Virus record (IMG/VR): IMGVR_UViG_644736364_000004 | From: a virus | Taxonomy: Duplodnaviria; Heunggongvirae; Uroviricota; Caudoviricetes | Reading direction: 5' to 3' (one strand) | Length of the DNA: 41,621 nt | In this document: piece by piece, positions 17,882 to 22,382 of the stretch | How positions within the stretch are numbered: the first letter of the stretch is position 1 | Layout: each line of letters starts with the position of its first letter | Notes under the pieces: generated by a model | Database searches by the model: none | Seen by the model: the letters and a program-made list of their open reading frames with translations, nothing else | What the model was told of the DNA's origin: nothing | Made by a program: the position numbers and the translations under genes

Positions 17882-18175
17882 TTATTGTGAGCAATACACA
17901 CGCGCTTCCAGCGGAGTATAAATGCCTAAAGTAATAAAACCGAGCAATCCATTTACGAATGTTTGCTGGGTTTCTGTTTTAACAACATTTTCTGCACCAC
18001 CACAAATTTTTGCTGCATCGACAGTTTTCTTCTGCCCAATTCCCGAAACGAAGAAATGATGGGTGATGGTTTCCTTTGGTGTTACTGCTGTAGGTTTGTT
18101 TCCAACAGTAAACGTCTGTTGAGCACATCCTGTAATAAGCATTGCCAGAGCGGCAGAAAACAACATTTTTTTCAT
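17882..18175 (-). CDS. bor: Bor lipoprotein (serum-resistance type), 97 aa
   Basis: From the ATG at 18175: MKKMLFSAALAMLITGCAQQTFTVGNKPTAVTPKETITHHFF… matches lambda Bor; lipobox LITGC. Confidence 0.85.
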   Translation of the reverse strand: MKKMLFSAALAMLITGCAQQTFTVGNKPTAVTPKETITHHFFVSGIGQKKTVDAAKICGGAENVVKTETQQTFVNGLLGFITLGIYTPLEARVYCSQ

Positions 18176-18655: not shown

Positions 18656-18982
18656 ATGAAAAGACGCCTTTTACTACTTTTTCTGTTATCTGTCCTGGCA
18701 GTGGGATGCTCGCAGCAAAAAGCTGATGAGCCCCGGCAATTAGTGACGGTGTATCCACGATATCCGGAATATGCTGCAGCAAATTATATCAAGGGGCTGG
18801 TTGAGGTTAAGTTCGATATTGGTGCTGATGGGACTGTGACACGGATCGTTTTTCTCCGCTCAGAGCCTCATAATTTGTTTCGTGATGAAGTGGTGAAGGC
18901 CATGGCGAAATGGCGATTTGAAAAGAATCGCCCCTGTCAGGGAGTGAAGAGACAATTTATCTTTACGCCGTCACGTCCTTGA
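18656..18982 (+). CDS. Putative envelope lipoprotein with TonB C-terminal-like domain, 108 aa
   Basis: ATG at 18656 preceded by AGGA; signal peptide with lipobox (LAVGCSQ). The TonB-C-like call is by eye. Confidence 0.5.
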   Translation: MKRRLLLLFLLSVLAVGCSQQKADEPRQLVTVYPRYPEYAAANYIKGLVEVKFDIGADGTVTRIVFLRSEPHNLFRDEVVKAMAKWRFEKNRPCQGVKRQFIFTPSRP

Positions 18983-19345
18983 TGCTTCCAGGTAGAGAGG
19001 GGCTGGAAGCAGGAGAAAAATGAAAGAGCCAGCGGTTATATTTTTGTCATGGCTGACGAGGAATGATGGAAGAAGGCGTTGTATGCCACACAACGCCTCA
19101 CTGTTCATTTCTTCTTTTTCTCTGGTGGAACCCGATGAATAAGAGTTGCACTGGTTTCCGATGAGATGGCGATATACTCGGGCAAAGTATGCTGGCAGTT
19201 TTCCAACTGGTCAAAAATACCTGCTCTCGTCTGTTGCAATGCCTGCAGCATGCGGCGGCAATGCGCCTTGCTTTTACTAACCATCTTTCCTTCCTCTATC
19301 AGTCGCTGCGTGAACTCATCATGGAATACCAGGTAAATGCGGATG

Positions 19346-19594
19346 TTATCGGTTTTGGCTACGCAGCATAGTACAAAACGGACAGGTGCATCCCGGGACG
19401 GGGGAGGCGTCACATGTCCCTGTGATGGTTGTTCCGGGTAATGTACTGTGTGGGGCATAAAAATGTCCGATAATTTTACTTTCTACCGCAGTTAGTTGAT
19501 TCGTTGGTCCTGGTAGCACATTGGGCGAGGATTTAAATGCCAGGCAACTGAAGGATGATGTCGCAAGGGAGATAGCGAGAATATTTCTGATTTT
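19346..19594 (-). CDS. Small hypothetical secreted protein, 82 aa
   Basis: In-frame ATG at 19594 gives signal-peptide-like MKIRNILAISLATSSFSCLA; overlaps another minus-strand ORF (19105-19458), so the gene model is uncertain. Confidence 0.3.
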   Translation of the reverse strand, partial: KIRNILAISLATSSFSCLAFKSSPNVLPGPTNQLTAVESKIIGHFYAPHSTLPGTTITGTCDASPVPGCTCPFCTMLRSQNR

Positions 19595-19745
19595 CATTTG
19601 ATGATGCCTCTGTGTGAAATGACGGTAAACGACGCACTTGTGCCGGCACATAATAGCAAGCACCATAATAGATCAGATTCGATTCTTGCTGTAAGTGATA
19701 ATTATTCTCGTTTTCGGGTCCTTTCCGTCGATCCAACAGGTTACG

Positions 19746-19757
19746 GGGCGGCGACCT
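19746..19757 (+). other. cos: cosN: 12-nt cohesive-end sequence GGGCGGCGACCT
   Basis: Sequence …CAGGTTACG|GGGCGGCGACCTCGCGGTTTTTCACTATTTATGAAAATTTT… matches the lambda cos junction as recalled; about 180 bp upstream of the terminase small-subunit gene. Confidence 0.65.
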
Positions 19758-19794
19758 CGCGGTTTTTCACTATTTATGAAAATTTTTCAGGGAA

Positions 19795-19920
19795 AATCGT
19801 GTCGGTACTTCTCGAATATAACTTTTTGTTTTTTTTAATATTGCATCCGTAAAGGTCCGACATGAAAGTGTCCGAAAATGCCTTTTTCTGGCGTTTTCAT
19901 GTCGGGCCTTGTATTTGATA
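19795..19920. promoter_or_regulatory. cosB-like region with repeated terminase-binding candidates
   Basis: Repeats GTCCGACATGAAA (19855-19867) and its near inverse TTTCATGTCGGGC (19895-19907), plus GTCGGTAC at 19801; these differ from the lambda R-site consensus. Confidence 0.4.
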
Positions 19921-19933
19921 ATGGGTTGTTTTC

Positions 19934-20482
19934 ATGAAGGTTAATAAAAAGAGGCTTGCCGAAATTTTCAACGTGGACCCGCGGACGATTGAACGCTGGC
20001 AGTCTCAGGGACTCCCTTGCGCCTCCAAAGGTAGTAAGGGCATTGAATCTGTATTTGATACTGCCATGGCAATTCAGTGGTATGCGCAGAGGGAAACTGA
20101 TATCGAAAACGAAAAGCTCCGCAAAGAACTGGCCGATTTGCGTGCGGCAGCGGAGTCAGATTTACAACCCGGCACCATTGACTATGAACGCTACCGGCTC
20201 ACAAAAGCGCAGGCAGATGCGCAGGAACTGAAAAATGCCCGTGAAGACGGAGTAGTGCTGGAAACTGAACTGTTTACCTTCATTCTGCAACGTGTGGCAC
20301 AGGAGATTTCGGGGATACTTGTGCGTGTGCCGTTGACATTACAGCGTAAATATCCGGACATTTCACCATCACACCTTGATGTGGTGAAAACTGAAATCGC
20401 GAAAGCCTCCAATGTTGCAGCTAAGGCCGGTGAAAACGTGGGCGGGTGGATCGATGATTTCAGACGCGCAGAAGGCAGCTAA
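19934..20482 (+). CDS. nu1: Terminase small subunit (Nu1 / phage-21 gp1 type), 182 aa
   Basis: [28 protein letters not shown]… aligns with lambda Nu1 (MEVNKKQLADIF…) with clear divergence. Confidence 0.9.
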
Positions 20483-22382
20483 TGCAGCCGGTGCGATAGC
20501 TACAGGGCTTTTATCTCTCATTATTCCTGTTCCACTGACGACAGTTCAGTGGGCCAATAAACATTATTACCTTCCTAAAGAGTCGTCTTATACCCCGGGG
20601 CGATGGGAAACACTGCCGTTTCAGGTTGGCATCATGAACTGTATGGGCAACGATCTGATTCGCACGGTTAACCTGATTAAATCTGCCCGTGTTGGTTATA
20701 CAAAGATGTTGCTGGGAGTGGAGGCTTATTTTATTGAGCATAAATCACGCAACAGCCTTCTTTTTCAGCCCACGGACTCAGCTGCTGAAGATTTTATGAA
20801 ATCTCATGTTGAGCCAACGATAAGGGATGTTCCTGCATTGCTGGAGCTGGCTCCATGGTTCGGAAGAAAACACCGCGATAATACGCTCACCCTGAAGCGT
20901 TTTTCCTCCGGTGTGGGGTTCTGGTGTCTGGGTGGTGCGGCAGCAAAAAACTACCGTGAAAAATCCGTGGATGTGGTCTGTTATGACGAGCTTTCCTCGT
21001 TCGAACCGGATGTTGAAAAAGAGGGTTCGCCAACCCTGCTGGGGGATAAACGTATTGAGGGCTCTGTATGGCCAAAATCCATTCGCGGCTCGACGCCTAA
21101 AATCAAAGGCTCCTGCCAGATCGAAAAAGCCGCTAACGAGTCGGCACACTTCATGCGTTTTTATGTGCCCTGTCCGCACTGTGGGGAGGAGCAGTATCTG
21201 AAATTTGGCGATGATGCCTCGCCTTTCGGTCTTAAGTGGGAGAAGAATAAGCCAGAAAGTGTTTTCTACCTTTGTGAGCATCATGGCTGTGTGATCCATC
21301 AGTCTGAGCTTGACCAGAGTAACGGGCGGTGGATCTGTGAAAACACGGGCATGTGGACCCGTGACGGCCTGATGTTTTTCAGCGCCCGGGGTGATGAAAT
21401 TCCGCCGCCGCGCTCCATCACTTTCCATATCTGGACGGCGTACAGTCCGTTCACCACCTGGGTACAGATTGTCTATGACTGGCTGGATGCACTGAAAGAT
21501 CCCAACGGCCTGAAAACCTTTGTGAACACCACGCTGGGCGAGACCTGGGAAGAGGCTGTGGGCGAAAAACTCGATCACCAGGTGCTGATGGATAAGGTTG
21601 TGCGTTACACGGCGGCGGTGCCTGCCCGGGTGGTTTATCTGACGGCGGGCATTGACTCGCAGCGAAACCGTTTTGAGATGTATGTCTGGGGATGGGCTCC
21701 GGGAGAGGAAGCCTTTCTGGTGGATAAAATCATCATTATGGGGCGTCCCGATGAGGAAGAGACGCTGTTACGTGTGGATGCGGCGATCAACAAAAAATAC
21801 CGCCATGCAGACGGAACCGAAATGACCATTTCCCGTGTCTGCTGGGACATCGGGGGGATCGATGGCGAAATCGTTTATCAGAGGTCAAAAAAACACGGTG
21901 TTTTCCGGGTGCTGCCGGTAAAAGGCGCATCTGTCTATGGCAAGCCGGTGATCACCATGCCAAAAACCCGCAATCAGCGGGGCGTGTATCTGTGTGAAGT
22001 GGGGACGGACACCGCAAAAGAAATTCTCTATGCCCGTATGAAAGCCGATCCCACGCCTGTGGATGAAGCCACGTCGTATGCTATCCGTTTTCCTGATGAT
22101 CCGGAGATTTTTTCGCAGACAGAGGCGCAGCAACTGGTCGCGGAAGAGCTTGTGGAGAAGTGGGAAAAAGGAAAGATGCGTCTGCTGTGGGATAACAAAA
22201 AGCGGCGTAACGAAGCGCTGGACTGCCTGGTGTATGCCTACGCGGCATTACGTGTGTCCGTGCAACGCTGGCAGCTTGATCTGGCTGTACTGGCAAAATC
22301 CCGGGAAGAAGAGACGACCCGGCCAACCCTTAAAGAACTGGCAGCGAAGCTGTCCGGAGGAGTGAATGGTTACAGTCGCTGA
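20454..22382 (+). CDS. A: Terminase large subunit (gpA)
   Basis: …[27 protein letters not shown]… and the rest align with lambda gpA; start chosen at the ATG at 20454 (alternative ATG at 20412); overlaps the nu1 3' end. Confidence 0.9.

Follow-up and report, generated by a model that had tools for sequence, protein, structure and literature searches.

A lambdoid prophage of Escherichia coli carries, in all likelihood, the cohesive-end site of coliphage 21

The DNA analysed here, a stretch of 41,621 nucleotides that we refer to as the window, carries in its middle a series of DNA-packaging signals that is followed by the genes for the two terminase subunits (Table 1). An earlier note on this DNA had reported a cosN junction of the lambda type at this place, and the junction is indeed present. 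Reading of the interval 19400-20700 gives CAACAGGTTACG on the left and GGGCGGCGACCTCGCGG on the right side of the nick. The junction itself consists of CAGGTTACG followed by GGGCGGCGACCT, with GTTACG (19740-19745) directly preceding the 12-nt cohesive end and the cosQ heptamer upstream of it, as in a cos of the phage 21 type. The top-strand nick was placed between positions 19745 and 19746 by alignment to virion-derived phage 21 records. A 47-nt pattern extending from cosQ to cosN occurs once in the window as compared to zero expected occurrences in shuffled sequences. cosQ falls within the older annotation 'R4' of M81255, which maps to 19715-19726, and the I2 site on the other side of cosN has been implicated in packaging termination (PMC4669245). 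An 84-codon ORF on the plus strand (19598-19852) crosses cosN as well as the R3 box; its counterpart in the related record PhiR63_2 is listed as 'hypothetical protein' (20510-20761), and the feature list of the PhiR57_1 match likewise includes a hypothetical protein. Since terminase would cut this ORF in two in virion DNA, the ORF called across cos in the related records is probably spurious, that is, an annotation artefact.

The region between cosN and the small terminase gene is organized as a complex cosB. Two repeats that had been quoted from this region in the earlier note are present and inverted relative to each other (GTCCGACATGAAA, 19855-19867; TTTCATGTCGGGC, 19897-19909), and a repeat search revealed a 27-nt inverted repeat, 81% complementary, whose arms (19852-19878 and 19884-19910) include both of them. 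They are the annotated phage 21 cosB boxes R2 and R1, whereas the R3 box and the IHF site I1 had escaped notice. With these two added, the order is R3-I1-R2-R1 with inverted R2, which agrees with the phage 21 annotations; the OL657228 record words it such that R2 is 'in opposite orientation to R3 and R1'. A search with the 13-nt R-box pattern CRTGTCGGNMCTT, allowing up to one mismatch, returned exactly three matches in 41.6 kb, every one of them perfect and all located inside 113 bp (19798-19810 on the plus strand, 19852-19864 on the minus strand and 19898-19910 on the plus strand); the pattern was built from these same sites, and the informative point is the lack of any further match in the window. 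The R boxes conform to C(A/G)TGTCGGnmCTT, and the specificity base pairs of R3 are G at bp 56 (19801) and G at bp 59 (19804). An additional match to the IHF consensus, with one mismatch, is found on the minus strand at 19919-19931 and corresponds to I0.

Table 1. Packaging signals and terminase genes at the cos locus. Positions refer to the window and are related to the phage 21 records by window = OL657228 + 19745 = M81255 + 19579.
Feature	Position	Strand	Basis
cosQ heptamer GGGTCCT, packaging-termination subsite	19716..19722	+	OL657228 cosQ 42902-42908; identical in lambda
cosN cohesive-end sequence GGGCGGCGACCT, 12-nt 5' overhang	19746..19757	+	base 1 of OL657228 and X02501 = 19746
I2, putative IHF site between cosN and cosB, conserved with lambda	19775..19789	+	M81255 I2 196-210
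cosB R3 box AATCGTGTCGGTACTT, small-subunit binding site	19795..19810	+	OL657228 R3 50-65; pattern match
I1, IHF site, minus strand AAACAAAAAGTTA, one mismatch from WATCAANNNNTTR	19819..19831	-	OL657228 I1 74-86; consensus scan
cosB R2 box, inverted relative to R3 and R1, minus strand TTTCATGTCGGACCTT; the repeat GTCCGACATGAAA	19852..19867	-	OL657228 R2 107-122
cosB R1 box TTTCATGTCGGGCCTTG; the repeat TTTCATGTCGGGC	19895..19911	+	OL657228 R1 150-166
I0, putative IHF-like site, overlaps the RBS of gene 1	19917..19931	-	M81255 I0 338-352
RBS of gene 1	19923-19926		M81255 RBS 344-347
Gene 1, terminase small subunit (TerS, gp1), 182 aa	19934..20482	+	Pfam Phage_Nu1, E = 1.1e-80
Gene 2, terminase large subunit (TerL, gp2), 642 aa	20454..22382	+	Pfam GpA_ATPase, GpA_nuclease

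The start of gene 2 overlaps the end of gene 1, and gp2 is predicted to act as the ATPase and as the endonuclease that nicks cosN. Pfam domains were assigned to all four ORFs tested, namely gene 1, gene 2, the W-like gene (gpW) and the portal gene (Phage_portal_2, a lambda-family portal). The gp1 protein is identical to phage 21 gp1 in 181 of 182 residues (1-66 and 68-182), its recognition helix and wing being those of phage 21. The only difference is D67A, which results from a change at position 20133: codon 67 reads GCC (Ala) here versus GAC (Asp) in phage 21 and in PhiR63_2. The exchange falls neither in the recognition helix (residues 17-24) nor in the wing (residues 31-39) but in the stretch that separates the winged helix-turn-helix region from the TerL-binding C-terminal half of gp1. 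IHF-independent mutants of the 21-type terminase map to gene 1. That D67A alters terminase assembly or IHF dependence appears highly improbable, and the exchange is probably a neutral polymorphism, which is by far the likelier of the two. In a cognate set, the gp1 C-terminus would pair with the gp2 N-terminus and the gp2 C-terminus with the portal, and the partners present here are phage 21's: gp2 is identical in 642 of 642 residues and the portal protein in 530 of 530.

At the DNA level, a megablast search of 19600-20500 against phage records retrieved Escherichia phage 21 (M81255) with 99.9% identity over the full length. Comparison of 19600-20700 with the three phage 21 records M81255, X02501 and OL657228 revealed a single mismatch, at position 20133 (C here, A in all three), so that cosQ, cosN and cosB match phage 21 at every position (100%). 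The fully identical interval 19600-20132 begins 146 bp to the left of the nick, extends across cosB and ends after the first 199 bases of gene 1. The feature tables of the phage 21 depositors (cosQ, cosN, R3, I1, R2, R1, RBS, genes 1 and 2) map cleanly to the window. Judged by these matches, the interval 19716-19931 is almost certainly (probability approximately 0.96) the cohesive-end site (cos) of coliphage 21, situated in the middle of an integrated lambdoid prophage that has the phage 21 late operon, and the sequence holds nothing that contradicts this assignment. The combination proposed in the earlier note, a lambda-type cosN with a non-lambda cosB and a small terminase of the phage 21 type, is thus borne out by a site that is 100% identical to the experimentally mapped phage 21 cos, and the proposed 21-like packaging specificity is supported as far as sequence goes, considering that gp1 and gp2 match their phage 21 counterparts as described above. 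This cos and its terminase genes, carried here by an E. coli prophage, are already known; they are fully annotated in public records and represent textbook material.

The cos of lambda has the same architecture, in which cosQ, cosN, I2, R3, I1, an inverted R2 and R1 precede the small-subunit gene. The cosQ heptamer and the cohesive end (12/12 positions) are identical in both; identity amounts to 83% in the 40 bp on the left side of the nick and to 81% in the segment 19758-19794, which includes I2. The latter segment aligns without gaps, and the distance between R3 and cosN is therefore the same as in lambda. The interval from R3 to R1, in contrast, is only 60% identical to lambda and the alignment contains gaps. 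The impression recorded previously that the repeats are unlike the lambda R sites holds upon alignment: R3, R2 and R1 of the window line up, position for position, with their lambda counterparts but have diverged in sequence, matching lambda at 10, 7 and 6 of 13 positions, respectively, as read by eye from the alignment. The 21-type boxes in the window differ from the lambda R-box consensus CGTTTCCnTTCT, and bp 56 and bp 59 of R3, both G in the window, are T and C in lambda. When searched for with CGTTTCCNTTCT and up to two mismatches, a lambda-type R box was absent from 19700-19940, and the 12 matches in the window compare to 11.1 expected by chance. Vice versa, there is no 21-type R box in lambda's cos, and matches elsewhere are at chance level.

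Both terminase subunits belong to the same Pfam families as lambda Nu1 and gpA. The small subunit had been described as diverged from Nu1, and this is confirmed by 94 identical residues in 182 aligned columns (52%), while gp2 is 64.5% identical to gpA. Similarity between gp1 and Nu1 is lowest in the C-terminal third (30-40% per 30-column block), and between gp2 and gpA it is lowest in the first 40 columns and the last ~40 columns (33%, and 38% or less, respectively, per 40-column block). At its two ends, gpA carries specificity domains, for Nu1 and for the prohead. The low identity at these termini of gp1 and gp2 is consistent with the subunit-contact domain described for the C-terminus of TerS (PMC9026076), a study that also describes the R3-I1-R2-R1 architecture, places the recognition helix at residues 17-24 and assigns TerL binding to a C-terminal domain. 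The recognition helix reads RTIERWQS in gp1, with Ser24, versus RTIQNWQE in Nu1, with Glu24. Lambda and phage 21 share cosQ and cosN, and each favours its own DNA over that of the other more than 1000-fold in packaging; this specificity depends critically on bp 56 and bp 59 of R3, and Glu24 of lambda TerS clashes with the GC pair at bp 56 of the R3 box of phage 21 (PMC4669245). The window has Ser24 together with G:C at bp 56, instead of a Glu24 that contacts T:A.

As to the genes downstream, the earlier note had called both head and tail genes lambda-like, which proved correct for the tail part and incorrect for the head part. A tblastn search with lambda proteins detected homologues of the head and tail genes from Nu1 to stf, all but FI. 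Identities to the lambda proteins are 52% for Nu1, 65-67% for A, 52% for W, 61% for B, 52% for C, 44% for Nu3, 57% for D, 62% for E and 65% for FII (that is, 44-65% from W to FII), as compared to 91-99% for Z, U, V, G, T, H, M, L, K and I, and 83% for J. Relative to lambda, a sharp mosaic boundary is accordingly seen at ~27,898/27,910, where the FII-like gene ends and Z starts, and not between the terminase and head genes. The head module differs from that of phage 21 by 19 nucleotides in 8600 bp (99.8% identical DNA). Its gp2, W-like, portal, protease/scaffold, decoration and FI-like proteins are identical to those of phage 21 and no stop codons are present; the major capsid and FII-like proteins each show a single change. 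The remainder of the late region (20801-41621) corresponds to phage 21 bases 1056-21875 with 99.2% identity. Because the tail region shares this degree of DNA identity, phage 21 should have the same FII/Z boundary towards lambda. We also considered a hybrid in which a phage 21 terminase serves lambda heads. This was rejected: the head genes are phage 21's own and are as diverged from lambda as the terminase, so that terminase and head genes are not mismatched. On these identities, the terminase, portal and head genes are one co-inherited phage 21 module, with a terminase that is matched to its heads.

To the left of cos, the segment 16679-19745 is 98.2% identical to phage 21 bases 39865-42931 and comprises the genes for pinholin, SAR endolysin and spanins, bor, a gene with a TonB-C domain and the right cos end. 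From its sequence, the late operon of the prophage (lysis, terminase, head and tail genes) is that of phage 21. The Bor lipoprotein gene (17882-18175, minus strand) and a small ORF that resembles a lipoprotein and has a TonB C-terminal domain (18656-18982, plus strand) are both located between the lysis genes and cos, an arrangement shared with phage 21 (CPT_21_71 and CPT_21_73). Just upstream of cos there is a 117-aa ORF on the minus strand (19105-19458), which corresponds to a hypothetical gene in PhiR63_2 (20014-20367), whereas OL657228 calls two short plus-strand ORFs at this place. The early region of the window, with integrase, immunity, Q and a porin moron, differs from that of phage 21. 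The gene in question encodes a 380-aa porin (15009-16151, minus strand) located between the Q antiterminator gene and the lysis cassette, and is named OmpD, NmpC or OmpC in related records; it looks like a moron and lies outside the phage 21 sequence that matches the window. That the window represents phage 21 itself was rejected: in the direct comparison, which covered bases 36000-42931 of the phage 21 right arm, only O/P/ren/ninB (~96-97%) and the segment from the lysis genes to cos match.

The same mosaic, a phage 21 late module combined with the early region of the window, is found in PhiR63_2 and PhiR57_1 (ECOR-related records) and in ev017, which are 99.2-100% identical over the window and which were taken to be viable phages from their deposition as phage genomes. 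The first 20.8 kb of the window, from integrase to cos and terminase, are 100% identical to PhiR63_2 apart from an IS200-type insertion. The latter comprises 705 bp with an IS200-family transposase gene between ren and ninB (12346-13050) in PhiR63_2 and is missing from the window (~12146). A literature search for ev017 did not retrieve an isolation paper for the ev phages, and no mention of PhiR63, PhiR57 or ECOR was found in PMC12315714.

It is conceivable that the site is a fossil, that is, that the prophage is cryptic or defective and that cos and terminase, albeit intact in sequence, never take part in packaging in this host. Defective lambdoid prophages are numerous in E. coli; moreover, the window is in prophage order and its early region is not that of phage 21. 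We nonetheless consider this very unlikely, as all nine genes from terminase through FII have their full length, lack stop codons and carry at most one substitution each relative to phage 21. Homologues of head and tail genes extend from Nu1 to stf, the FI-like gene matches that of phage 21, and outside the first 20.8 kb, which equal PhiR63_2 except for the insertion, the window is 99.2-99.4% identical to deposited phage records.

Two further explanations concern the function of the boxes. The R2/R1 inverted repeat might form an RNA or DNA hairpin or provide an operator for the control of gene 1 at the level of translation or transcription, rather than serve as a terminase site. An imperfect 27-nt palindrome of this complementarity just upstream of the RBS of gene 1 would suit such a role, but its arms coincide exactly with the annotated phage 21 boxes R2 and R1, a third copy (R3) is present in direct orientation at the same distance from cosN as lambda R3, and the R3-I1-R2-R1 layout is common to lambda, phi80, 21 and Gifsy-1 (PMC9026076), all of which leaves this explanation with an exceedingly small probability. 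A secondary regulatory role, in addition to that in terminase binding, is conceivable. Alternatively, the site could, notwithstanding its divergent sequence, have lambda or relaxed packaging specificity. It shares conserved cosQ, cohesive-end and I2 sequences with lambda, and packaging termination is reported to be independent of cosB specificity (PMC4669245). Against this stand the lack of a lambda-type R box in the region, G at both bp 56 and bp 59, and the replacement of Glu24 by Ser24, which render lambda or relaxed specificity practically negligible as an option.

For a cos of coliphage 21, the packaging pathway is established from work on phage 21 and lambda (PMC4669245, PMC9026076) and can be transferred to this locus through sequence identity. 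Following induction, rolling-circle replication would generate concatemers, on which dimers of gp1 (TerS) would dock their winged helix-turn-helix domains onto the R boxes. IHF would bend the DNA at I1 such that R3 and the inverted R2 face each other, and gp2 would thereby be anchored at the adjoining cosN, where two nicks placed 12 bp apart are expected to generate the GGGCGGCGACCT 5' overhangs. The complex would then dock on the portal and package the DNA rightward, gene 1 entering first, until packaging ends at the next cos, presumably recognised via cosQ, cosN and I2. The discrimination between lambda and phage 21 would reside in cosB and in the recognition helix of gp1.

The 241-bp site (19700-19940) was present with at least 80% coverage in 626 of 5426 complete E. 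coli genomes, and the part comprising cosQ, cosN and I2 in 1922 of 5426. A 23-kb segment (9000-32000) is 100% identical in strains N53, N62 and MS7163 and is covered to at least 80% in 228 genomes, including the type strain ATCC 11775 (99.6%). Thus, the late module of phage 21 is widespread in E. coli, where it is combined with different early regions. For annotation, the analysis places the virion genome ends of the prophage at the junction of 19745 and 19746. As a discovery, the site carries little weight: the cos in the window has the reference sequence of the lambda/21 cosB/TerS specificity pair, and this pair has been a standard system for the study of viral DNA-packaging recognition since the 1980s.

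A further comparison is provided by phage N15 and Monarch, which are likewise lambda-like: their cohesive end is 12 nt long, and their small subunit recognises R boxes (PMC4669245). N15, however, relies on a single critical R3, has a distinct packaging specificity and possesses a cohesive end that differs from that of lambda at bp 9 and bp 12 (PMC4669245). The site in the window, in contrast, is of the complex three-box type of phage 21 and is combined with the cohesive end shared by lambda and 21.
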